Virus record (IMG/VR): IMGVR_UViG_2684622582_000008
Location: 1-13,574 of that record
Length of the DNA: 13,574 nucleotides
Source of the DNA: a virus
Lineage: Duplodnaviria > Heunggongvirae > Uroviricota > Caudoviricetes
Strand: one strand, 5' to 3'
Shown here in pieces: positions 1 through 11,899 of the stretch. Within the stretch, counting starts at the first letter, position 1. Each line of letters begins with the position of its first letter. Below the pieces are notes generated by a model. The model did not search any database. It was not told where the DNA came from and saw nothing but the letters and a program-made list of their open reading frames with translations. The position numbers and the translations under genes are program-made.

Positions 1-1038
1 CTACTTTTTCGACTCTTTATTCCACTGTAGCAAACCAGCGATATCCTTCTCGCCTTCGGCTTCTTTTAAGCGCCGTTGTTGTTCGGCAAACTGAACATAC
101 TCCGCCTGCGCTTTTTCATCGGCCATTTTCTTGCTGATTTTACCAGCGCCCTGTAGAACCTCTCGGTCGTTAAATTGCAGGAACTGATCCAGCTTATCCT
201 GCCAGTCGCGCAAAAAGACTTGCTGACGACGACGGGCCTGATCCTCGGCAAAGTCCAGCCACATATTAACCACGCGATTAAGTTCGCTGACCTCATCCTG
301 GGTGAGATAATTTTTTGCCACCGTCACGTCGCCCTTACGTACCTCTTCACCTTTATAACTGGTCAAGCCCATGTGCGGCTGGCTGGCATCTGCTCGTTTG
401 TGGATGAGTTCCGCAGCGGTATGCCCGGTACAGGCAAAATGCAGTTTATTCTGGATGGTTTGAAAAAATTGCGTGGTTTCTTTAAGCGATGGCTGATAGT
501 CGGCAGCTAAAGCAAAGATCTCCCGCACCCGCAAATATACCCGACGCTCGCTGGCGCGAATATCGCGGATGCGTTCAAGCATCTCATCAAAATAGTCGGG
601 CACAACCGATGAACCGACAGGCGGATTCTTCAGCCGCTCATCGTCCATCACAAAACCTTTGATCAGGTATTCCTGAAGCGTCTGGGTGGCCCACTGGCGG
701 AATTGCGTGCCTCGAGGCGAGCGAACGCGATAGCCGACAGCGAGAATGGCTTCGAGGTTGTAATGGTCTATCTCTCTGGAAACCTGACGTTTTCCTTCCT
801 GGCGAACTATCCGGAATTTCCGGATGGTTGAGTTTTGAACAAGTTCACCTTCGGAAAATATATTGATTAAATGTTCGTTAATAGTGCGAACATCTTTATC
901 GTACAGTTCAGCCATTGCCGCCTGGGATAACCAGATTGTGTCTGACTCAAAGCGACATTCAACACGCACTCTTCCGTCACCGCTGGCAAACATAATAAAC
1001 TCGCCTGCTGGGGGCTGGGTTAAGTCTTTGTCTGACAT
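1..1038 (-). CDS. rhuM: RhuM-family (virulence protein RhuM-like) protein, 345 aa; lies outside the satellite, next to the displaced selC 3' end
   Basis: Minus-strand ORF with TAG stop at 1-3. Preferred start is ATG at 1038 (MSDKDLTQ...), preceded by GGAGG 4 nt upstream. The longer ORF-track start at 1122 would run through the att repeat. Family call is from recalled similarity to RhuM proteins of selC-linked islands such as Salmonella SPI-3. Confidence 0.6.
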   Translation of the reverse strand: MSDKDLTQPPAGEFIMFASGDGRVRVECRFESDTIWLSQAAMAELYDKDVRTINEHLINIFSEGELVQNSTIRKFRIVRQEGKRQVSREIDHYNLEAILAVGYRVRSPRGTQFRQWATQTLQEYLIKGFVMDDERLKNPPVGSSVVPDYFDEMLERIRDIRASERRVYLRVREIFALAADYQPSLKETTQFFQTIQNKLHFACTGHTAAELIHKRADASQPHMGLTSYKGEEVRKGDVTVAKNYLTQDEVSELNRVVNMWLDFAEDQARRRQQVFLRDWQDKLDQFLQFNDREVLQGAGKISKKMADEKAQAEYVQFAEQQRRLKEAEGEKDIAGLLQWNKESKK

Positions 1039-1088
1039 GTCGCCTCCGAAGGAGTGTTGTTGACGTCGGGAGAGTTCAGGAGAGGCAT

Positions 1089-1111
1089 TTTGGCGGAAGA
1101 TCACAGGAGTC
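1089..1111. repeat. attR: displaced copy of the selC 3' end (direct repeat of 11803-11825)
   Basis: tggcggaagatcacaggagtc at 1091-1111 is identical to 11805-11825; the match extends 2 nt upstream (tt). Imperfect similarity continues into the element (caaaattgcc vs cgaacctgcc). Confidence 0.85.
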
Positions 1112-1233
1112 AAAATTGCCATATAACCACTTGATTCAAATCGTTTATATTTTTCTATTCTAATTCATTTATACACATCCTTATACATATAATATCTATC
1201 GATTAATTGTTACACGTATCTTCACGCACGTTA

Positions 1234-1540
1234 ACTCAGGAAAAAAATTTTTTTTCGGAAGAACTGTTCACACTGTTCACCTTTCTGTTTTCTCCTTTTA
1301 TTTCAGTTTGATAGGTGGTGAATAATGGGTGAAGGGTGAACATTCGATTCTTCACCTCCGGCATTCTGCCGGTGTGACTCATACCGGTGATTAATCCTCC
1401 GCACTGAAATCACTCAGGAAGAAAAAAGTTTTTTTGATTTGATTGTTCACACTGTTCACCTTTCGTTTTTCTCTTTTAATTTCAGTGTGATAACGGGTGA
1501 ATATACGGTGAAGGGTGAACAGTGGATTGTTCACCTTCGG
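1234..1540. repeat. crr-like cis replication region: two ~128-bp direct repeats (1234-1361 and 1412-1540), each with several TGTTCACC/GGTGAACA type-I-like iterons
   Basis: The two segments align almost base for base (actcaggaa...ttcacactgttcacctttc...ggtgaagggtgaaca...ttcacc). Octamers such as tgttcaca (1265-1272), tgttcacc (1274-1281) and ggtgaaca (1335-1342) are present. Position directly downstream of alpha matches P4 crr. Confidence 0.75.
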
Positions 1541-1554
1541 GGGATTCAGGGATG

Positions 1555-1578
1555 AAAAAAGACCGGCAGATGCCGGTC
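1555..1578 (-). terminator. Rho-independent terminator downstream of alpha
   Basis: Stem gaccggc/gccggtc (1561-1567 and 1572-1578) with a 4-nt loop. On the minus strand it is followed by a run of six T (complement of aaaaaa at 1555-1560), 17 nt past the alpha stop. Confidence 0.55.
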
Positions 1579-1594
1579 AGATGAGTCATGAGGG

Positions 1595-3928
1595 TCAGGT
1601 TGTTGCAGGGTCGTCACATTTTGGCAGCCAGTCGCCGTAGCTTTCCTCTTTCAGCGTCAGGTTGGTCTGTATCCCCTGTTTGGTATGGCGCTTCTCGTAA
1701 TTCAGCCCGTATTCCTTCAGCATCACCGGCAGCCCCAGCCCGAACATTTTCAGACTGAGTACATTCCGGTAGCCGTTTGCCTCCATGTAGGCCAGATAGG
1801 CGTGATAGAGGTATTTACGGTAATTACGCGGGATGATACTGGCGTTCCCCATATACATGCCGCTGGTCTGCGGCAGGGTTTCCAGATAGCCGATAAAATC
1901 AAACGTCGGGTCGGCATCCCGTTTGATGTTCAGTGCCTCGTCTGAGTTCTGCTGGGACTGAAGCAGTGACCGGGCGAGCATCGGGTCGCTGAATTTCTGC
2001 ATCAGGTGACGCACGATGACCGCCAGCTCGCGGGTGATTTTGTCCTTAAGCTGCGGGTCGCGCTCCTGCGGGGCTATCTGTTCCGGGAAGTGAATAATCA
2101 CCCGCCGGCGTGACACGCCGCCGCTGCGGTCGGTGAAGCGCATCGGGTTATTGTTCACGGCCAGAATCACCGCCGGGATATGCGTGGAGTACGCATCCCG
2201 GTATTTCGGGTCCACGGACACCGCATCGCCGCCGGTGATGGCCTTGAGTCCGGCACCGTCGCCGCTCCATTTTTCCTGGTCCGGCAGGCGTATCAGTGAG
2301 AAGCCAGTTAACGCGGCACGTTCACGCGGGGATTCCAGCGTCTCAATGGTGGCCGATGTGGCGTTATCCTCCCCGGCCAGCAGGGTGGCGATTTCGGCCA
2401 TGATACTTTTGCCGCTGCCGCCGGGACCGGTCACCTCCAGAAAGAGCTGCCAGTCGTAGCGGTTTGCCAGCACCATAAACAGTGCGGCCAGAATCACGTC
2501 GCGTTTTTCCGCACGGCCACCGGCGGCACGGTCAAGCCAGCGCCAGAACGCGGGGGCGTGGTTTTCCAGCGTTTCCCCTTCCACCGGCGGGGTGAAATCC
2601 ACATCGCACAGGGTGCGCATCCAGTGTGACGGACTGTGCAGGTGGAACGTGCCGTTCTGCGTGTCGAGCACGCCGTTACGAAAGCCAATCAGGCGGCGGG
2701 AGGGGGCTTCCTGCTGCGGAATAATCAGCTTCAGGGTGTCCACCACGGAGGCCACCTTCCCGGAGGAGAACGGCGCGCGCAGACGCTGAAACAGCCCGGC
2801 CACATCCCGGGCAAAGTCCTGTGGCGGCAGCATCTTCCAGACACCATTTTCATAGCGGGACAGAAGCTGGCCGTTGGCATCGACCGCGAGCGCCTCGCCG
2901 TAATGCTCATAGATACGCATGGCCTTTTCGCTGGTACTCATGGCGGAAAACTCCGCTTCGCTCATGGTGTCGAACGGGCTTTCAGCCGGTGGCCGGATGG
3001 CATCGTAAATGGCCTTACGGGTGGCCTCCCCGCCGTACTGCGTGAAGGCATCATTCCAGTCACCGAAGACCGGCGGCAGGGCAACAACGCCCTCACACGC
3101 ATCTGCGGCTGCGGCGGCTTTTTTCTGGCCGTCACCGCTGAGGTCACGGTCAGCAGCAAGGACAATCTGACAGGCCGGATGCTTCTGCCGGGCAAGGCTG
3201 GCCAGAGAAAGGAGGTTCACGGAAGAAAGCGCCACCATCACCGTTTCACCGGTCAGGTGATGTACGGTAAGTGCGGTCGCGTATCCCTCCGCTATCCACA
3301 GACGTTTTCCGGCCTGATTCTGTCCTTCAAGGATGTGACAGGTGCCCCTGACCTGTCCGCCTTTCAGGGTGCGCTTACGGCCGTCAGCACTGATTAACTG
3401 AAGGTTAACCAGTTCGCCGCTGTCGTCATACAGTGGCACCACAAGGTCACCGGCACGCCAGCTCACGCCACCGGCTCTGTGTGTGCCGGTCAGCATCCGG
3501 CATTCCCGGCCGGGAAAGCCCTTGCGGGTCAGGTAGGCGTTACCGGTTCCGGGACGGGTTTTCGCCATCAGGGTTTGTGCCAGTGCGGCGGCGTTCTTCC
3601 GGGCAGCGTCTGTTTCAGCAACGGCGGCGGCCGTCACTGCCGGGTCAGCCGGGGGCAGGCTGCCGGTCACGGCAGCCACCTTTGTGGCCGCGTCGGACGG
3701 GGAGACACCAAACACCTTTTCAACCAGTTTCAGGCCGTCACCGGCACCACACTGATTGCAGTACCAGGTGCCGCGCCCCTCCCTGTCATCAAAACGGAAG
3801 CGGTCACTCCCGCCACAGACCGGACAGGGCTGATGACGGTTTTTCAGCACCTGAATCCCCAGCGCCGGGAGGATACGCGGCCAGTGGCCGAGCGCATGGC
3901 TGACGGTGGCGGTTACGTTCATTTTCAT
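1595..3928 (-). CDS. alpha: P4 alpha-type primase-helicase (zinc-binding primase N-terminus, central/C-terminal P-loop helicase), 777 aa
   Basis: ATG at 3928 with GGAG upstream. N-terminal CPVCGG...WYCNQCG zinc-binding motif; Walker A GPGGSGKS; length equals P4 alpha (777 aa); flanked by crr iterons. Confidence 0.85.
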   Translation of the reverse strand: MKMNVTATVSHALGHWPRILPALGIQVLKNRHQPCPVCGGSDRFRFDDREGRGTWYCNQCGAGDGLKLVEKVFGVSPSDAATKVAAVTGSLPPADPAVTAAAVAETDAARKNAAALAQTLMAKTRPGTGNAYLTRKGFPGRECRMLTGTHRAGGVSWRAGDLVVPLYDDSGELVNLQLISADGRKRTLKGGQVRGTCHILEGQNQAGKRLWIAEGYATALTVHHLTGETVMVALSSVNLLSLASLARQKHPACQIVLAADRDLSGDGQKKAAAAADACEGVVALPPVFGDWNDAFTQYGGEATRKAIYDAIRPPAESPFDTMSEAEFSAMSTSEKAMRIYEHYGEALAVDANGQLLSRYENGVWKMLPPQDFARDVAGLFQRLRAPFSSGKVASVVDTLKLIIPQQEAPSRRLIGFRNGVLDTQNGTFHLHSPSHWMRTLCDVDFTPPVEGETLENHAPAFWRWLDRAAGGRAEKRDVILAALFMVLANRYDWQLFLEVTGPGGSGKSIMAEIATLLAGEDNATSATIETLESPRERAALTGFSLIRLPDQEKWSGDGAGLKAITGGDAVSVDPKYRDAYSTHIPAVILAVNNNPMRFTDRSGGVSRRRVIIHFPEQIAPQERDPQLKDKITRELAVIVRHLMQKFSDPMLARSLLQSQQNSDEALNIKRDADPTFDFIGYLETLPQTSGMYMGNASIIPRNYRKYLYHAYLAYMEANGYRNVLSLKMFGLGLPVMLKEYGLNYEKRHTKQGIQTNLTLKEESYGDWLPKCDDPATT

Positions 3929-3942
3929 GGTGTTGTTCTCCT

Positions 3943-4263
3943 TCAGTGCAGTACCGGCGCTTTTATGTGACGGGCACAGAGTTCATCCATCACAACCAGC
4001 CCGAGAAAGGACAGCGACGGCGCGGCCTTCAGGGGGCCGGATTCCATTAAATCTTCCAGCAGGGCACAGGCTATCTGACGCCCTTTTTCCTCACCGTGCT
4101 GGCGCAGATAAAAGCCTTCCAGCTCAGCGGCGATGGCCGCCTCCAGTGATTCAAGGGTGAGATGCGGGTAGCGGTGCTGACGTTCGCACACGGTCAGCCA
4201 GGCACAGGCGACAGCGCGACGGTAAAGGGCTGCGCGTAAGACGGGCGGTAAGGGGGTTTTCAT
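3943..4263 (-). CDS. cnr: P4 orf106-like small protein (possibly Cnr copy-number regulator), 106 aa
   Basis: ATG at 4263 preceded by GGGAGG. Ends 14 nt upstream of the alpha start, so it is in the operon. Size and position match P4 orf106; the cnr name is from memory and tentative. Confidence 0.5.
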
Positions 4264-4398
4264 TTGTTTTCCTCCCTGTGACAGATGACTGCATTCCGTG
4301 CCGGTTGCATTAACTGATAAGGCATATCTGCGTCTCCTGAAGACGTGCGTATCCCTGCGCGAATACGCACATTTAATTTTTCGGGTGTCGTTTTTTAA

Positions 4399-4854
4399 TT
4401 ACAGATAATTGCGGTAACTGTTATCCGGGGTGATTTCCGGGTCAGGCTCCGTGCGGGAAATTTCCCGCCATTCCCGCGCCACCGGTGCCGCCCGGCTGGC
4501 CGGAACAGTGTCCTGCGGGTAAATATCCAGATATTTCTCCCGCCATTTCTGTAATTCCGGGTCTCCGGCCATTTCTTTCAGTACCGCATGCCGGTTTACG
4601 GGGCTGCGTTTGAACAGGTCAGGACGGTCACAGGTAAATTCCCGCAGAAAACGCCCCAGCGGGATGTCTGTGGTGCGCCCGTCAGTGAGGATACGCACAA
4701 GGATACTGAATTTTCGGCGGTACGGGTTCCAGACAATTTCCGGACAGCGGTACGGCATTTCCCACGGAATACCGTCTTCCAGAATGCCGACCACGGCCAC
4801 ATCGGGAAAACCGGCAGAACGGTAAATCTCACCGGGCTGGGGAAAATCAAACAT
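4399..4854 (-). CDS. P4 orf151-like hypothetical protein, 151 aa
   Basis: ATG at 4854; start overlaps the stop of the upstream epsilon-like ORF by 8 nt (coupling). Size and position match P4 orf151. Confidence 0.6.
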   Translation of the reverse strand: MFDFPQPGEIYRSAGFPDVAVVGILEDGIPWEMPYRCPEIVWNPYRRKFSILVRILTDGRTTDIPLGRFLREFTCDRPDLFKRSPVNRHAVLKEMAGDPELQKWREKYLDIYPQDTVPASRAAPVAREWREISRTEPDPEITPDNSYRNYL

Positions 4855-5134
4855 GTGTCCTGTCTCCCCGGTCTTTCTGCTGGGCGAGAAAATCGCGGCA
4901 CAGGCCTTTGGCTTTCAGCTCATTCAGCACAAAATCAATATCTTCATTCAGGTAGCTGAAAATATGCGGAATGTAGAGCTGATGCAGGCCGGAGAGTTCA
5001 CGGTGAATCAAATCACCCCCAACAAACCGGGATACTGCGCTGGCGCGGTTGAGCTTATGGTAAGCCTCAATGCTGAGGTGTTCACGGGCGTCATGACGCG
5101 CTGAGACGGTCTGAGGGGCTTTTTTATTACGCAC
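4847..5134 (-). CDS. epsilon: Epsilon-like protein (P2-type helper derepressor), 95 aa if GTG start at 5134
   Basis: In-frame GTG at 5134 preceded by GGAGG (revcomp of cctcc at 5141-5145). Overlaps the stop of the upstream 65-aa ORF (GTGCGTAA). Alternative in-frame ATG starts at 5179 or 5215 cannot be excluded. Function inferred from position and size only. Confidence 0.5.
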
Positions 5135-5324
5135 GGGACACCTCCACCACCGGCAGACGGGCAGCAAGGGAGAGCACATAGTCACGGACAAGGGAACGGC
5201 GGGCGCTGCGTTCATCACCGGCGACGGTGCGAAGCATGCAGATACGGGGATGACGGTCTGCGCGACGGACAGCCGCAAACACAAAGACAAATTCAGGGTG
5301 TGAAGGGGTAAGGGTTGTAGCCAT
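5127..5324 (-). CDS. Small hypothetical protein (65 aa), first well-supported ORF after the leader
   Basis: ATG at 5324 with AAGGAGA 7 nt upstream; TAA stop at 5127. It is the C-terminal part of a longer open frame (5127-5762) that I do not accept as one gene. Confidence 0.45.
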
Positions 5325-5355
5325 AAGGCAGTCTCCTTCGAGTAGCAAATAACTG

Positions 5356-5619
5356 CTATCGCCGGAGTTCCTACGCTCGATGGCGATAGCCCAGACGGGG
5401 GTAGGAATACCGGCCTCGAAGAATACCGGCCAGCCCGGAGGCTGCCCCGCCTGAGCTACCATTGACTCAGTGGCATAACATGCGATTGCGAACAGGATCA
5501 TACCTGCACGGCAAACCACACGCCACACCATAATCTGGCGCTCTGTGGCGTTGATTGCGACACAAAAAAAGACGCATGGCGCGTCATATGTCGCCTTCGA
5601 GTTACACGGGTTCCTACGC
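5356..5619 (-). ncRNA. Candidate P4-type immunity leader (cI-like RNA with seqA/seqB/seqC-like elements)
   Basis: No RBS-supported ORF between the vis stop and 5324. gttcctacgc occurs twice (5367-5376 and 5610-5619); ggggtaggaat at 5397-5407 is near-complementary (8/10) to it. Hairpin ctatcgcc/ggcgatag (5356-5363 and 5382-5389). Order on the leftward transcript (copy, complement, copy) matches the P4 seqA-cI(seqB)-seqC layout. Confidence 0.35.
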
Positions 5620-5648
5620 CCGGCTGCCGATTTTGCGGCAGCGGAAAA

Positions 5649-5678
5649 ACTATATCCGCAAATGCCGGAAAAAGGCAA
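5649..5678 (-). promoter_or_regulatory. Candidate constitutive leftward promoter (PLE-like)
   Basis: On the minus strand: TTGCCT (-35; plus 5673-5678) and TATAGT (-10; plus 5649-5654) with 18-bp spacing, just downstream of vis. Confidence 0.3.
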
Positions 5679-5713
5679 GCCAGAAAAAGGGAGTTTTTGC
5701 AGAGCGGGCATCA

Positions 5714-5980
5714 TCATGCGTCGTACCCCCGTTTGCGTCCGGCAATGCGCCCGGCCATCCATGCGGTGATTTCAGAGTGCAGCCAGGCCACATTTTTACC
5801 GCCAAGACTCACCTGCGGCGGAAATTCCCCCTTACGGATGAGTTCGTAGATGGTCGAGCGTGACAGGCCGCACAGGTGCATCACTTCCGGCAGACGTAAA
5901 AAACGCTCCTGCGTGATGTCCGGCAGCGGCATCAGTGGCGTCACAGGGGCGGGAGACGGGGAAGAAAAAACAGCTTGCAT
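5714..5980 (-). CDS. vis: AlpA/Vis-family helix-turn-helix regulator/excisionase (P4 orf88 vis-like), 88 aa
   Basis: ATG at 5980 with GAGGT upstream. Segment [29 protein letters not shown]...[10 protein letters not shown] is typical of AlpA-family proteins. Length equals P4 orf88 (vis). Confidence 0.75.
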
Positions 5981-6081
5981 CGGGCTACCTCGTTAATGTC
6001 CATACAGCACCGGATAAGTCCGTCCGGCTTCGGGTAGCGCTTTATTTTGTGAATATTTTCAGCAGACGCAACAGGGGGATT

Positions 6082-6099
6082 TGTTCAGGCTGCCTTACA
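6082..6099 (-). promoter_or_regulatory. Delta/Ogr-type activator site (TGT-N12-ACA) of a leftward late promoter (PLL-like) upstream of vis
   Basis: tgt tcaggctgcctt aca at 6082-6099, centred about 110 bp upstream of the vis start. Confidence 0.5.
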
Positions 6100-6257
6100 A
6101 TGACTGTGTGTTTTTTATCCATCTGGACTGGAAGGGTCTCAAAGGGTTCTGAAGGACCTGGAATTTTTTATAGTGAAATACAAATTGTTTTTTCTTATTT
6201 ATTTCAGTGAATTAATAAAAATAAACAGTAGTAAACAGCACAAAAAGTCCATGAGCG

Positions 6258-6361
6258 GGTGAACAGTGGTGAACAGACGGTGAACAGTCATTACTGCGAT
6301 TGTTCACCCTTTAACTTACTGTATTACTTATCTTTTTTATTAAGGTGAACAGAGGTGAACA
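6258..6361. repeat. ori-like cluster of six type-I-like iterons (GGTGAACA/TGTTCACC)
   Basis: ggtgaaca at 6258-6265, 6268-6275, 6279-6286, 6344-6351 and 6354-6361; inverted tgttcacc at 6301-6308. Same octamer as in the crr-like repeats about 4.8 kb away. Confidence 0.7.
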
Positions 6362-6440
6362 GTAAAATATAAAAAAACAAACAGTAAGCCGGTTTTTCCT
6401 GCGACCTTTTCCTGGCTTGCCGGTGTGAGGATGAGTCTCC

Positions 6441-6458
6441 TGTGTCAGGGCTGGCACA
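6441..6458 (+). promoter_or_regulatory. Delta/Ogr-type activator site (TGT-N12-ACA) of Psid late promoter
   Basis: tgt gtcagggctggc aca at 6441-6458, centred about 80 bp upstream of the sid ATG (6531). Confidence 0.55.
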
Positions 6459-6530
6459 TCTGCAATGCGTCGTGTTGTTGTCCGGTGTACGTCACAATTT
6501 TCTTAACCTGAAGTGACGAGGAGCCGGAAA

Positions 6531-7265
6531 ATGTCTGACAACACCATCCCTGAATATCTGCAACCCGCGCTGGCACAACTGGAAAAGGCCAGAGCCGCCC
6601 ATCTTGAGAACGCCCGCCTGATGGATGAGACCGTCACGGCCATTGAACGGGCAGAGCAGGAAAAAAATGCGCTGGCGCAGGCCGACGGAAACGACGCTGA
6701 CGACTGGCGCACGGCCTTTCGTGCAGCCGGTGGTGTCCTGAGCGACGAGCTGAAACAGCGCCACATTGAGCGCGTGGCACGCCGGGAGCTGGTACAGGAA
6801 TATGACAATCTGGCCGTGGTGCTGAATTTCGAACGTGAACGCCTGAAAGGGGGGTGTGACAGCACGGCCACCGCCTACCGGAAGGCACATCATCACCTTC
6901 TGAGTCTGTATGCAGAGCATGAGCTGGAACACGCCCTGAATGAAACCTGTGAGGCGCTTGTCCGGGCAATGCATCTGAGCATTCTGGTACAGGAAAATCC
7001 GCTCGCCAACACCACCGGCCATCAGGGCTACGTCGCACCGGAAAAGGCTGTCATGCAGCAGGTGAAATCATCGCTGGAACAGAAAATTAAACAGATGCAA
7101 ATCAGCCTCACCGGCGAGCCGGTTCTCCGGCTGACCGGACTGTCAGCGGCAACACTCCCGCACATGGATTATGAGGTGGCAGGCACACCGGCACAGCGCA
7201 AGGTGTGGCAGGACAAAATAGACCAGCAGGGAGCAGAGCTTAAGGCCAGAGGACTGCTGTCATGA
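6531..7265 (+). CDS. sid: Sid-like capsid size-determination (external scaffold) protein, 244 aa
   Basis: ATG at 6531 with GAGGAG 8 nt upstream (the ORF-track GTG at 6513 has no RBS). Length equals P4 Sid; first gene of the sid-delta-psu operon. Confidence 0.8.
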   Translation: MSDNTIPEYLQPALAQLEKARAAHLENARLMDETVTAIERAEQEKNALAQADGNDADDWRTAFRAAGGVLSDELKQRHIERVARRELVQEYDNLAVVLNFERERLKGGCDSTATAYRKAHHHLLSLYAEHELEHALNETCEALVRAMHLSILVQENPLANTTGHQGYVAPEKAVMQQVKSSLEQKIKQMQISLTGEPVLRLTGLSAATLPHMDYEVAGTPAQRKVWQDKIDQQGAELKARGLLS

Positions 7266-7762
7266 TTTACTGCCCGTCGTGTGGACATGTTGCTCACACC
7301 CGTCGCGCACATTTCATGGACGATGGCACCAAGATAATGATTGCACAGTGCCGGAATATTTATTGCTCTGCGACATTTGAAGCGAGTGAAAGCTTTTTCT
7401 CTGACAGTAAAGATTCAGGAATGGAATACATTTCAGGCAAACAGAGATACCGCGATTCACTGACGTCAGCCTCCGGCAGTATGAAACGCCCGAAAAGAAT
7501 GCTTGTTACCGGATATTGTTGTCGGAGATGTAAAGGCCTTGCACTGTCAAGAACATCGCGGCGTCTGTCTCAGGAAGTCACCGAGCGTTTTTATGTGTGC
7601 ACGGATCCGGGCTGTGGTCTGGTGTTTAAAACGCTTCAGACCATCAACCGTTTCATTGTCCGCCCGGTCACGCCGGACGAACTGGCAGAAAGCCTGCATG
7701 AAAAACAGGAACTGCCGCCAGTACGCTTAAAAACACAATCATATTCGCTGCGTCTGGAATGA
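7262..7762 (+). CDS. delta: Delta-like late transcriptional activator (tandem Ogr-type zinc-finger domains), 166 aa
   Basis: ATG overlaps the sid stop (ATGA). CPSCGH...C..C and a second C..CC..C...C..C cysteine cluster are consistent with duplicated Ogr-like zinc fingers. Length equals P4 Delta. Confidence 0.8.
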   Translation: MIYCPSCGHVAHTRRAHFMDDGTKIMIAQCRNIYCSATFEASESFFSDSKDSGMEYISGKQRYRDSLTSASGSMKRPKRMLVTGYCCRRCKGLALSRTSRRLSQEVTERFYVCTDPGCGLVFKTLQTINRFIVRPVTPDELAESLHEKQELPPVRLKTQSYSLRLE

Positions 7763-7835
7763 GGGCTGCCGGTTAACACCGGCCGTCGCCGCACACCGTA
7801 TTTTTATTCTTCAGCATGATGAGAAAGAGATAACG

Positions 7836-8408
7836 ATGGAAAGCACAGCCTTACAGCAGGCCTTTGACACCTGTCAGAATAACAAAGCAGCATGGCTGCA
7901 ACGCAAAAATGAGCTGGCAGCGGCCGAACAGGAATATCTGCGGCTTCTGTCAGGAGAAGGCAGAAACGTCAGTCGCCTGGACGAATTACGCAATATTATC
8001 GAAGTCAGAAAATGGCAGGTGAATCAGGCCGCTGGTCGTTATATTCGTTCGCATGAAGCCGTTCAGCACATCAGCATCCGCGACCGGCTGAATGATTTTA
8101 TGCAGCAGCACGGCACAGCACTGGCGGCGGCACTGGCACCGGAGCTGATGGGCTACAGTGAGCTGACGGCCATTGCCCGAAACTGTGCCATACAGCGTGC
8201 CACAGATGCCCTGCGTGAAGCCCTCCTGTCCTGGCTTGCGAAGGGGGAAAAAATTAATTATTCCGCACAGGATAGCGACATTTTAACGACCATCGGATTC
8301 AGGCCTGACGCGGCTTCGGTGGATGACAGCCGTGAAAAATTCACCCCTGCGCAGAACATGATTTTTTCGCGTAAAAGTGCGCAACTGGCATCACGTCAGT
8401 CTGTGTAA
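7836..8408 (+). CDS. psu: Psu-like polarity suppression protein (Rho antagonist / capsid decoration), 190 aa
   Basis: Third gene of the late operon; length equals P4 Psu; N-terminus MESTALQQAFDTCQNN matches my recollection of P4 Psu. Confidence 0.8.
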   Translation: MESTALQQAFDTCQNNKAAWLQRKNELAAAEQEYLRLLSGEGRNVSRLDELRNIIEVRKWQVNQAAGRYIRSHEAVQHISIRDRLNDFMQQHGTALAAALAPELMGYSELTAIARNCAIQRATDALREALLSWLAKGEKINYSAQDSDILTTIGFRPDAASVDDSREKFTPAQNMIFSRKSAQLASRQSV

Positions 8409-8444
8409 AATTCCCCGAAAATCCGCCTGTTTTTACTGAAAAAA

Positions 8445-8483
8445 GCCATGCATCGATAAGGTGCATGGCTTTGCATGCGTTTT
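8445..8483 (+). terminator. Candidate terminator after psu
   Basis: Stem gccatgca/tgcatggc (8445-8452 and 8462-8469) followed by a T-rich tract tttgcatgcgtttt. Confidence 0.4.
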
Positions 8484-8572
8484 CCTGCCTCATTTTCTGC
8501 AGACCGCGCCATTCCCGGCGCGGCCTGAGCGTGTCAGTGAAACTGCATTAAAACCGCCCCGCAAAGCGGGCG

Positions 8573-8591
8573 GGCGAGGCGGGGAAAGCAC
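8573..8591. other. cos-like cohesive-end site (P2/P4-type 19-mer)
   Basis: ggcgaggcggggaaagcac matches the P2/P4 cohesive-end sequence as I recall it; it lies between psu and the cargo gene, as in P4. Confidence 0.65.
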
Positions 8592-8620
8592 TGCGCGCAT
8601 GTATGCAGGAAATAACCTGA

Positions 8621-8666
8621 CTCTCCAGCCAGAGAAAGAAACTGAACTGGAGAGTTTTTTGTTTTT
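8621..8666. terminator. Stem-loop with flanking T/A tracts between cos and the cargo gene
   Basis: ctctccag (8621-8628) pairs with ctggagag (8647-8654), followed by ttttttgttttt (8655-8666). It sits about 25 nt past the stop of the minus-strand cargo gene. Confidence 0.35.
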
Positions 8667-8678
8667 ACATGGATGTGT

Positions 8679-10439
8679 TCAGTTTTTATTTATGAATGAA
8701 ATACTGTTCTCTAGTGACTCCTTTACTTTTTTCACGGTGTTTTTTAACTCAATAATGGCTCCGCGACGAAAAGAAATTGAAAGTTCATTCAGGTAAGAAT
8801 TTAAGAACTCATCTAGTTTTTTTAGATGAGGTAGCTCGTTAGATAGATAATCGCGAAGGTTAGAAAAGTTGTATACAGATAATAGATGGTCTGAAAACAT
8901 TTGAATATCGTAAATGGACCAATTATGTTGTATGGCACTTATGATTAAATTTACATCTAAAGTTTCCAGTGCTTTAAACTTGAAATCTGAATGATATATA
9001 TCCATATCGATAGTGGTCCAACCATCGTTAACCATCTTGTTTTTTAATTCTTCTATTCTTTCTCTTTTTGTTATGTTAATATATTTGTCAACAAAAAAGT
9101 TATATAAATTATCTCCATCATGTTTTAGCATATTTAGTGGGATGTCATTGATGTTTGGCACGGTTTTATGAAAATATGATTTTATTTCATCGTCACTGAA
9201 GCTAAGTTTGCTTTGATTAATGGTGTCTTCATCTAGGGTGTTTATATGAGGTATATATTCATATTTTGAGAGTCTAATATAGTTATTCGTGGCAATTAAC
9301 CATGTAGATAGATCTGGAGAATTTGATTTTAAAATTGTTTTTATTATTTCTTCCTGATAGTCATGTTCAGATATGTTATATAACTCAGGTCTTAATAATC
9401 CAGCATAATCATTTCTCTTGGGAGGGGTATTGTCAGTAAAAACATATGGAAGAATGTCTTTATGCGAAATTGCATTAAAACAATATGGAGCCATTTTATT
9501 ATTATAGTTTTTGTATGCACTAATACTTAATAAATTGTTTTCTTCTTCACTTATTTCATTGTGTTCGTTTTCTGGTGTGGTTGAAATTGTTTTGAGTGAT
9601 GATGAAACAAAATTTTCACGAAACTCATTTTCCTTATAGTTGAATTTTTCCTTAAGTATTATATGTGCACACAATGAGCTTACTAAATTTTTAATATCTA
9701 TATCAGAGATATCTCTGTCTTGCGTTGTTTGTTCAAACAACGGTAGGAGTTTTACAATGACTCTATTAATGATTCGGATATTTGTTTCTTCGAAATCTAT
9801 AATTACTTGCTTAATGATGTCTCTATAATTTTCTTGTATTTTCTCAAGCTTTTTATCTAAAATGTCAGAAAGATTGTTTATAGAAAAGTATACCTCGTCG
9901 CTAATAACTTTTTCTTTATGATTCAATACCTCATTGCTTTGTTTTGAAAAATTACCAACTAAAATATAGTCTAACATCTTGTTATTTTGATAATTTTGTA
10001 AGCAAAAGGTTGCTATTTCATCTCGCAAATTTTGAGGTATACGTTCTAGATCATCAATAATAAAAACTCCTGAAAGATCTTTTAATACATAATGTTGCAT
10101 TGCCCCTGCAAATGTTGATATTATTTTTCCAGTAAACTTCCCAGTGCTTTCTTCTTTAGTAATAGCTGTGGTTACATTTGATGCTAACTCTGTAATTATT
10201 TCTATATCGGGTGGATTCTCTAAATAAGTTACACTCAACACCTTGTCTTTAAAATCTTGCAAACTATTTAATCCAAGCACAGATATATAAAATTGAGTTT
10301 TGTTGGAATAATATTGCTTAAATTCATTTTGAAGGAAGAATGTTTTACCAACCCCCCACTCACCGTTTAACAAAATTAGACCTTCACGTTTTTCATTTAG
10401 TAATCTAATTAAAACAGATATTATTGTGTTTTTATCCAT
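8679..10439 (-). CDS. KAP-family-like P-loop NTPase with large uncharacterised C-terminal region, 586 aa; candidate anti-phage defence cargo in the P4 hotspot
   Basis: ATG at 10439 with AAGGAG upstream. Walker A GEWGVGKT (GxWGxGKT type) and Walker B VFIIDDLER (hhhhDDL[DE]R type) in the first ~135 aa. Very AT-rich compared with the P4 backbone. Occupies the gop/beta/cII position between cos and int. Confidence 0.7.
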   Translation of the reverse strand: MDKNTIISVLIRLLNEKREGLILLNGEWGVGKTFFLQNEFKQYYSNKTQFYISVLGLNSLQDFKDKVLSVTYLENPPDIEIITELASNVTTAITKEESTGKFTGKIISTFAGAMQHYVLKDLSGVFIIDDLERIPQNLRDEIATFCLQNYQNNKMLDYILVGNFSKQSNEVLNHKEKVISDEVYFSINNLSDILDKKLEKIQENYRDIIKQVIIDFEETNIRIINRVIVKLLPLFEQTTQDRDISDIDIKNLVSSLCAHIILKEKFNYKENEFRENFVSSSLKTISTTPENEHNEISEEENNLLSISAYKNYNNKMAPYCFNAISHKDILPYVFTDNTPPKRNDYAGLLRPELYNISEHDYQEEIIKTILKSNSPDLSTWLIATNNYIRLSKYEYIPHINTLDEDTINQSKLSFSDDEIKSYFHKTVPNINDIPLNMLKHDGDNLYNFFVDKYINITKRERIEELKNKMVNDGWTTIDMDIYHSDFKFKALETLDVNLIISAIQHNWSIYDIQMFSDHLLSVYNFSNLRDYLSNELPHLKKLDEFLNSYLNELSISFRRGAIIELKNTVKKVKESLENSISFINKN

Positions 10440-10469
10440 AAAATACTCCTTTTAGTAATTATAATTAAC

Positions 10470-11642
10470 TCAATCTGCTGGATAAATAAAGTCACTATAC
10501 CATTGTAACATCTTTAATCTTTTCTCTAAATATTGAGCATGATTATATGTTCCCCTAATGCTATTTTTATCAACATGAGCTAGTTGCATTTCAATCCATG
10601 CACTATCAAAACCTTGTTCATGTAGTATTGTCGACATTGTATGTCTAAACCCGTGGCCTGTTGCACGTCCCTTATAACCAAGTAATTCGATCACTTGTGA
10701 TATACTTTCTTTAGAAATTGGTTTAGTACGATTATTACGTCCAATAAATATATAAGGATAATGGCTAGAGATGGGTTTTAATTGATTAAATAGGGTAATC
10801 ACTTGAGATGATAAAGGTACAAGGTGAGGCCGACGCATTTTCATGCGTTCTGCTGGTATTTCCCATATTCCTTTTTCTAAATTGACTTCTTCCCATGTGG
10901 CAAAACGCAGCTCTTGTGTTCTTACTCCGGTAAGCATCACAATCTTGGTTGCATTTTTAGTGATTATGCTGCCAGTGTAAGCCTCCAGATCTTTGACAAA
11001 ATAAGGGAGTTCTTCTGCTGATAGAAAAGGATGATGTTTTTGCTTCGGTACAGCTAATGCGATAGCTAAATCAGGTGCTGGATTGTATTCAGCACGGCCA
11101 GTGATGATCGCGTAGCGAAACACCTCTCCGCATCGTTGACGTACTTTTCTGGTTTTCTCCAACGCTCCACGTTTTTCTATGCGTTTAAGTACTTCAAGCA
11201 GTTCTAGGGGTTTAATTTCAGCTATTGGCCGTTTACCAATGAAAGGAAAAACATCCTGTTCAAATGTTTTAATAATTTCTTCGCGATAAGCTAGAGTCCA
11301 ACGATCTGCTTTTGCTGCGTGCCATTCTCTGCTAACTGCCTCAAAAGAGGTTTCAATTGATAATTTCTGAGCAATTTTCTGAGCCTTACGTTCTTCTACT
11401 GGATCAATGCCGTTTGCAACCTGTTTACGTGCCGTATCGCGTTTCTCACGTGCTTCTGCGAGGCTTACTAAATCATAGCTGCCAAATGACATTAACCGCG
11501 CTTTCCCAGCAAATCTGAAACGGAAACGCCAGCCTTTCGAGCCATCTGGATTGATAAGCAACGACAGACCTTGTCCATCGTTCAATGTGTATGGCTTGTC
11601 TTGTGGTTTTGCACGTTTGATCTGTATATCGGTTAGAGCCAT
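10470..11642 (-). CDS. int: Tyrosine site-specific integrase (P4/CP4-57-like family), 390 aa
   Basis: N-terminus MALTDIQIKRAKPQDKPYTL...WRFRFRF is typical of P4-family integrases. C-terminal catalytic region GHGFRHT...LAHVDKNSIRGTYNH. Lies adjacent to tRNA-Sec. AT-rich. Weak RBS. Confidence 0.85.
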   Translation of the reverse strand: MALTDIQIKRAKPQDKPYTLNDGQGLSLLINPDGSKGWRFRFRFAGKARLMSFGSYDLVSLAEAREKRDTARKQVANGIDPVEERKAQKIAQKLSIETSFEAVSREWHAAKADRWTLAYREEIIKTFEQDVFPFIGKRPIAEIKPLELLEVLKRIEKRGALEKTRKVRQRCGEVFRYAIITGRAEYNPAPDLAIALAVPKQKHHPFLSAEELPYFVKDLEAYTGSIITKNATKIVMLTGVRTQELRFATWEEVNLEKGIWEIPAERMKMRRPHLVPLSSQVITLFNQLKPISSHYPYIFIGRNNRTKPISKESISQVIELLGYKGRATGHGFRHTMSTILHEQGFDSAWIEMQLAHVDKNSIRGTYNHAQYLEKRLKMLQWYSDFIYPAD

Positions 11643-11804
11643 GTGTATAACTGAAAACTACGTATAAAAAATCTATACACATTACTATACATATTTTTCG
11701 CGGATTCAGGGAGATGAACTCGGACTATTACGGATAAGATGATTATTCATCGTATTGAATACAAAGGGTTTTATGGAGCGTCTCGGAACTGGCTGGATGA
11801 AGTT

Positions 11805-11899
11805 TGGCGGAAGATCACAGGAGTCGAACCTGCCCGGGACCGCTGGCGGCCCCAACTGGATTTGAAGTCCAGCCGCCTCACCGGAGACGACGATCTTCC
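11805..11899 (-). tRNA. selC: tRNA-Sec (selenocysteine tRNA), intact; its 3' end forms attL
   Basis: The reverse complement of 11805-11899 reads GGAAGATCGTCGTCTCCGGTGAGGCGGCTGGACTTCAAATCCAGTTGGGGCCGCCAGCGGTCCCGGGCAGGTTCGACTCCTGTGATCTTCCGCCA, matching E. coli selC as recalled, including the long variable arm and CCA end. Confidence 0.9.

Follow-up and report, generated by a model that had tools for sequence, protein, structure and literature searches.

A probable cos packaging site at the edge of the cargo cassette in a P4-like satellite prophage integrated at selC

In the satellite phage P4, closed circular DNA is cut at a 55-bp cos site, leaving 19-nt cohesive ends (PMC2231350; the packaging of P2 and P4 is also summarised in PMC9122126), and PMC9594776, PMC5694545 and PMC2231350 attribute this 55-bp core to Ziermann & Calendar 1990. 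Transduction of cosmids rose about 10^4-fold with longer cos regions (PMC9594776), and the capsids of P4 accept cosmids of 5-10 kb, the 10-kb del22 mutant and the 11.6-kb P4 genome (PMC2231350). The core genes of P4-like satellites have been listed (PMC13586616), and the interval between psu and int has been described as a hotspot immediately beside cos, whose cassettes vary and may face either way (Rousset et al. 2022, Cell Host Microbe; PMC9122126), a description repeated in Moura de Sousa & Rocha 2022 and in a 2026 NAR study. Foreign DNA beside cos is also recorded in 186-related prophages, where a retron is reported to have taken the place of the DNA separating cos from a transcription terminator (Dodd & Egan 1996, cited in PMC5694545).

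The locus considered here lies in a 13,574-nt stretch of viral DNA (IMG/VR record IMGVR_UViG_2684622582_000008), the whole of which is referred to below as the window, and in which an initial annotation had placed a helper-type cos site next to a cargo gene. Positions 8444-8598 are read here as the cos packaging site of an intact P4-like satellite prophage at selC, with a probability of roughly 0.9. The anatomy of the element, as observed in the window, is as follows:

1089-1111, distal att repeat, one exact copy of the 23-nt sequence TTTGGCGGAAGATCACAGGAGTC
1242-8572, P4 backbone comprising crr, alpha, orf106, orf151, epsilon, the C4/CI RNA, alpA, sid, delta and psu
Between the att repeats, crr repeats, two copies of 119 nt each
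1595-3928, alpha primase-helicase (Pfam match), with orf106 and orf151 next in order
4847-5134, epsilon (PHROG match), with an Ash/Icd-like ORF adjoining in order
5379-5655, minus strand, C4 antisense immunity RNA with isrK and a1b1 target elements (Rfam)
5714-5980, alpA
6531-7265, sid
7262-7762, delta
7836-8408, plus strand, psu, 190 aa (Pfam Psu, E = 1.3e-88; PHROG 6366)
10470-11642, minus strand, tyrosine integrase of the selC-specific type, 390 aa, right border of the hotspot (Pfam Arm-DNA-bind_3, Phage_int_M, Phage_integrase)
11803-11825, att repeat in the 3' part of tRNA-Sec, the other exact copy of the 23-nt TTTGGCGGAAGATCACAGGAGTC
11805-11899, minus strand, tRNA-Sec (selC)

By Pfam and PHROG matches, the whole P4-like core set (int, psu, delta, sid, alpA, the ash/epsilon region and alpha) is present in canonical order, and positions 1242-8572 align with P4 4291-11624 as a single block of 7.3 kb at 97.4% identity, the alignment ending exactly at the right end of P4, one base before the cohesive-end motif described below. 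Leftward of cos, the first conserved gene reached is psu, at the same 164-nt spacing as in P4. Integration at a tRNA-type gene, flanking att repeats and an excised circle that measures 10,714 bp from the att spacing all agree with a P4-like satellite of about 10-12 kb. The earlier suggestion that cos is retained holds for an element that looks mobilisable, with intact att repeats and nothing missing from the P4 core genes or the immunity RNA; the immunity system scores 74 bits for C4, 72 bits for isrK and 49 bits for c4-a1b1 in Rfam.

The backbone of such elements is mosaic: in a comparison with L006, L009 and L019, some selC relatives carry an 81-aa delta and a 187-aa psu, compared with 166 and 190 aa here and in P4, and homology to the window breaks off between 7384 and 7851. 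Outside the att repeats lie yicJ, from 12135 onward, and, just beyond the satellite on the other side, a RhuM-family gene (1-1122, minus strand) that matches the PADLOC candidate PDC-S05 (E = 3e-173) and may be a remnant of another selC island. The distal att repeat falls within the 5' extension of the longest RhuM ORF, the annotated start in relatives lying about 84 nt further in.

The putative packaging site itself comprises four nested or adjoining parts:

8444-8543, plus strand, extended cos left flank, with TGCAT repeats and dyads; P2-like phages align over 8444-8598
8544-8598, plus strand, 55-bp cos core common to P2 and P4 (29 bp left, the 19-mer, 7 bp right), from alignment of the circular junctions
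8573-8591, plus strand, 19-nt cohesive-end sequence GGCGAGGCGGGGAAAGCAC, exact and unique in the window, equal to P4 bases 1-19 and to P2 cosL/cosR
8592-8598, plus strand, TGCGCGC heptamer, left boundary of the variable cassette and the sole conserved bases on the cargo side of cos

The claim that a 19-mer here matches the P2/P4 cohesive end came with its own test, a comparison with the cos sequences of both phages that was set beforehand, and the outcome confirmed it: the motif is identical at 19/19 positions to bases 1-19 of P4 (NC_001609) and at 19/19 to the annotated cosL (1-19) and cosR (33575-33593) of P2 (NC_001895). It occurs only once in the window, either strand considered, even when up to three mismatches are allowed, and no match at that tolerance arose in any of 200 dinucleotide-preserving shuffles. 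That a GC-rich 19-mer arose here by chance can be dismissed altogether, given the shuffles, the P4 homology of the 164-bp flank and a position between psu and int like that in P4. The motif is variable in other genera, where Serratia carries GGCGAGGCGGGGATAGTAT and the Yersinia version is more divergent. An ORF that spans cos (8461-8796, plus strand) has no family match and was treated as spurious.

Identity extends well beyond the motif. P4, P2 and the window share a junction of the form TGCATTAAAACCGCCCCG(CA/TG)AAGCGGGCG, then the 19-mer, then (C/T)GCGCGC, and the observed length of 29 + 19 + 7 = 55 bp matches the core known from the literature, so that the helper-type assignment made earlier is borne out by the full shared core as well as by the cohesive end. 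Positions 8544-8598 are identical to P4 at 54/55 and to P2 at 53/55, with 55/55 positions matching one phage or the other. The sole difference from P4 is base 8592, which is T here and in P2 and C in P4; as both variants occur in elements presumed to be functional, this would count little against function. Between the psu stop and the 19-mer, the 164 bp are 97.6% identical to P4 11461-11624, and the alignments of several P2-like phages (from Klebsiella, Yersinia, Salmonella and Escherichia) cover 8444-8598, extending past the core.

The left flank has a distinctive composition. TGCAT starts at 8449, 8462 and 8472, with a fourth copy at 8544 inside the core, and this is the only place in the 13.6-kb window with four copies within 110 nt (0.14 expected); dyads lie at 8442-8472 and 8500-8527. 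An alignment of 16 cos regions (P4, P2, six E. coli prophages or satellites, satellites of Serratia, Yersinia and Klebsiella, and five Peduoviridae phages) has a central TGCAT pair about 95-115 bp left of the cohesive end that is invariant in all 16, usually with a third copy just upstream of the pair and a further one at -29. In a second set, 120 IMG/VR loci containing an exact 26-mer were classed as P4-like or P2-like by their neighbouring psu or portal genes, and at least two TGCAT were found between -145 and -81 in 14/14 distinct P4-like and 65/76 distinct P2-like cos regions, with mostly none in controls. The placement in the window, at about -125 to -95 and at -29, is that of both groups. 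The psu side, 8444-8543, is thus presumed to be the terminase-recognition side of cos and to be required for its function, and the TGCAT repeats, to judge by their conservation and by what is known of P4 and P2, may be contacts of the terminase small subunit. In P4-like elements two of the TGCAT copies form the stem of a psu-distal hairpin, and their conservation there could partly reflect a terminator.

A structural role has also to be considered for the GC-rich dyad at the left edge of the cohesive end (8554-8573), which might be mainly a terminator or structural hairpin separating the cargo/int transcript from psu. Read on the minus strand, 8573-8554 was flagged by a scan as terminator-like, with TTTTAATGCA after it; the folding energy of the dyad in the window is -8.9 kcal/mol, and in Serratia a hairpin still forms through compensating changes. 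However, the fold is no better than that of shuffles (z = -0.8 to -1.5), and pairing is lost in the Klebsiella satellite, a Klebsiella phage and STYP1 (z = +0.65 to +1.8). The right arm, AAGCGGGC(G/A)GG, is conserved across the 16 aligned regions, and since it persists where pairing is lost, conservation acts on sequence rather than on pairing. A conserved hairpin or terminator overlapping cos was accordingly rejected, the fold being at shuffle level and the pairing absent from functional-looking relatives, and a mainly structural purpose for the dyad is extremely improbable.

On the cargo side, conservation of the cos site is far shorter. YGCGCGC follows the 19-mer in 15 of the 16 aligned P2-like and P4-like regions (Escherichia, Klebsiella, Serratia, Yersinia and Salmonella), regions with a variant 19-mer included, and a further relative, L005, has CGCCCGC in its place. 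In P4-like elements, column conservation runs from psu to cos and collapses 7 nt past the 19-mer, whereas in P2-like elements it continues rightwards toward the portal gene. At the level of aligned columns, then, conservation of the satellite cos is asymmetric: the psu side contributes about 130 bp and four TGCAT, the cargo side TGCGCGC alone. As a separate observation, TGCGCGC is unchanged in Serratia and Yersinia satellites whose 19-mers are at least three positions off P2/P4 (L013, 7845-7851; L015, about 7844-7850, minus strand), the heptamer there being better conserved than the cohesive end itself.

Beyond the heptamer begins DNA of a different kind, with the following features:

8599-10485, variable cargo cassette (hotspot content), delimited by homology breakpoints and GC content
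8620-8655, plus strand, inverted repeat with a 9-bp-stem hairpin ACTCTCCAG...CTGGAGAGT, then TTTTTTGTTTTT (T run), terminator-like
8679-10439, minus strand, cargo gene encoding a 586-aa P-loop/AAA+ NTPase with a helical C-terminal half; TGA stop at 8679-8681

GC content falls immediately after cos, from about 55-60% in the backbone to about 27-32% in the cassette. A 471-nt query consisting of the psu end, cos and the cargo end was compared with 5426 complete E. coli genomes and matched 2255 of them (2260 records), the cargo side being matched in 12 genomes only. Breakpoints were read from 60 records sampled evenly down the ranking of 2260: with the exception of one that shares the cargo, all sampled alignments end at query 348-356, that is, at window 8597-8605, 6-14 bp past the 19-mer. 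Matches to P2-like prophages start at 8526-8544 (one at 8566) and also end at 8597-8605. In one E. coli P2-like prophage (L010, 2724-4830), the portal gene next to cos is split by ISApl1, and this helper is probably defective. At the other border, homology to selC relatives resumes at 10486 or 10530, inside the final 16-60 nt of the int gene. The interval between cos and int holds a DEAD/DEAH helicase with a small ORF, a HAD hydrolase with an ORF, or a helicase with a DUF2290 gene in selC relatives, and a restriction endonuclease in an element located at ssrA; alternative cargos were found in L004, L005, L008 and L009. Gene content between cos and int varies, as in a hotspot, among elements that are otherwise homologous. 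The proposal of a cos-proximal cassette site is therefore upheld by the breakpoints, by the scarcity of the cargo side and by the other genes carried at this position in selC relatives, and, as aligned, the core at 8544-8598 locates the left border of the cassette with single-base precision. The distance from the 19-mer to the cargo stop had been given as 88 bp, which is correct within one base (8679 - 8591 = 88, with 87 bases between).

The hairpin at 8620-8655 folds at -10 kcal/mol (z = -3.4) and is also found with the same cargo in L006 (APEC E16002), an element in which the delta-psu segment is non-collinear with the window (7385-7850 unaligned). From these comparisons the terminator-like hairpin is part of the cassette and travels with the cargo; facing the psu operon, it may block read-through from the late operon into the antisense strand of the cargo gene. 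A search for a cargo promoter returned one sigma-70-like site, inside the 3' end of int (10530-10502), and such sites are no commoner than in shuffles.

The same comparisons bear on whether the site could be a relic, a cos surviving in a domesticated, immobile selC island for no other reason than that the element is young. Many P4-like elements in genomes are degraded, the relative L007 has IS66 in its backbone, and the window itself holds no helper. Against this, the element has kept every P4 core gene, the immunity RNA, crr and the two att repeats in intact form; the core is invariant across many elements with wholly different neighbouring cargo, which points to purifying selection on cos; and orthologous elements of other genera keep cos at the same place with a co-varying 19-mer. 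A relic is therefore considered very improbable, and the reading of 8444-8598 as the packaging site of an intact satellite is preferred.

Why the cassette should lie exactly here is a separate question. With no conserved sequence past TGCGCGC, the DNA there would be free to vary without harm to packaging, and there the cassette begins; the absence of any needed sequence beyond the heptamer is the most economical explanation of why a cassette site should lie at the tip of the genome. A competing explanation, which leaves the identity of cos untouched, is that cos itself causes the hotspot, the cohesive ends made by terminase or exposed on injection being recombinogenic and driving cassette exchange, as Rousset et al. 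2022 have speculated (PMC9122126). The clustering of breakpoints 6-14 bp from the cohesive end in the sampled elements is in keeping with such a process, as is the occurrence of the same cargo and terminator beside a non-collinear delta-psu segment in L006. The second breakpoint, however, falls at 10486 or 10530, within the 3' part of int, so that homologous recombination between the conserved cos/psu and int flanks would suffice without events initiated at the ends, and the main hotspot of P2-like phages (the old/tin side) is on the opposite side of cos and begins farther off. Exchange driven by the cohesive ends is therefore judged rather unlikely, and freedom to vary past the heptamer is retained as the simpler account.

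The product of the cargo gene gives weak Pfam matches to AAA_22 and KAP_NTPase and a weak match, over the N-terminal half only, to the PADLOC candidate PDC-S49; NCBIfam returned no match above cut-off, no effector domain was recognised in the protein, and a PDB sequence search found no solved relative. The AlphaFold model (mean pLDDT 79) resembles only ORC/Cdc6/RuvBL AAA+ folds in Foldseek, at TM < 0.3, with a predicted helical domain following. Homologues are 53-86% identical, about 587 aa long and confined to Enterobacterales; the family is present in 38 of the 5426 E. coli genomes, including ATCC 8739 (NC_010468) with a 71%-identical homologue. For NC_010468, Table S1A of Rousset et al. 2022 (PMC9122126) gives a hotspot entry consisting of a single 'AAA_22' gene, and the table of tested systems in the same paper (Table S2) has no AAA_22 entry. 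By its location, the cargo is a candidate defence (anti-phage) gene. Orthologues in Serratia, Yersinia and Klebsiella keep the order int-cargo-cos in P4-like elements, with a spacing to cos that is also 88 bp in Serratia. At 7765-8104 in Serratia (L013 and L014) and Yersinia (L015 and L016), the orthologous cargo and cos-like site occur with no psu called between cos and delta, and only about 330 bp separate cargo and delta. The cargo product and that of P2 old (NC_001895, 31620-33380) are both exactly 586 aa long, and both genes adjoin cos, on opposite sides; on domain grounds kinship is judged unlikely, the cargo having matches of AAA_22/KAP type only and lying on the other side of cos, and the equal length is probably coincidence.

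Taking the biology of P4 and P2 as a guide to cleavage and packaging, the following course of events can be proposed. In the presence of an active P2-like helper, the satellite would be excised by its own integrase and replicated as a 10.7-kb circle, on which the helper terminase (gpM/gpP in P2) would recognise cos and nick both strands, the top one at 8572/8573 and the bottom one at 8591/8592, a stagger that leaves 5' overhangs of 19 nt. The linear DNA would then be threaded into a small capsid remodelled by Sid, and at 10,714 bp it is of a length that P4 capsids accept. Virion DNA would begin on the left at 8573, the cargo gene's 3' end lying 87 bp into the duplex, and would end on the right at 8572, 164 bp beyond psu, which is the right-terminal gene in P4 as well. 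The expectation that packaging places the cargo at one terminus of the linear genome is thereby sharpened: a cut at cos would set it at the left end, 87 bp in, in the position held by gop/beta/cII in P4. By analogy with lambda cosB, one may go further and suppose that the asymmetry of cos fixes the cassette at the genome tip, that the end bearing the recognition repeats is packaged first and the cargo end last, the cargo consequently being injected first, and that the exposed end is the entry point of cassettes; this extension is speculative and on balance unlikely. Were the recognition end indeed packaged first, a defence cassette would be the first satellite DNA to enter a new cell.

By every sequence criterion examined, the site belongs to the P2/P4 cos family. 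The selC island would thus appear to be a whole P4-like satellite that is probably still mobilisable, and not a dead island, in which case its 586-aa NTPase could travel in P2-type particles. The practical value lies in annotation, the cos core giving the cassette an exact left edge. The cos-proximal position of the hotspot is a correct reading that has already been published, and the placement of the cassette beside cos adds nothing to Rousset et al. 2022 (PMC9122126). The small additions made here are the base-level boundary at TGCGCGC, the one-sided conservation of cos with its TGCAT repeats, the location of the P2 hotspot across cos from that of the satellites, and the retention of the heptamer in other genera in which the 19-mer has drifted.

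Set beside known systems, the site is closest to the cos of P4 (NC_001609, junction 11624/1), with which it shares the 19-mer, 54/55 positions of the core, the 164-bp spacer at 97.6% identity, a position after psu and non-essential genes to the right. The right-hand DNA itself differs, being gop/beta/cII in P4 and the gene for a 586-aa NTPase here, and the integrase/att module here targets selC rather than the attachment site of P4. With P2 (NC_001895) and other Peduoviridae it shares the 19-mer, 53/55 positions of the core, the TGCGCGC right flank and TGCAT at the same leftward distance, whereas to the right of cos the P2-like phages are conserved into the portal/terminase operon. Accessory genes accordingly lie on different sides: the hotspot of P2-like phages (old/tin and others) is to the left of cos and starts farther away, while that of P4-like elements is to the right, 7 bp from the cohesive end. 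The cos of lambda, made up of cosN and cosB, combines a staggered nicking site with a one-sided flank of repeated protein-binding elements, and has 12-nt ends and a concatemer substrate. The logic is the same as in P2/P4, although the sequences are unrelated and P2/P4 cut closed circles, and a cosB-like role for the TGCAT repeats is proposed by analogy. The retron-bearing 186-related prophages reported by Dodd & Egan 1996 (cited in PMC5694545) resemble the window in that a terminator-like hairpin lies between cos and cargo here too, and differ in being phages of the helper type where a satellite is found here. With the P4 psu-int hotspot of Rousset et al. 2022, finally, both the locus and the claim coincide: nothing essential differs, and the cargo family is already catalogued there.
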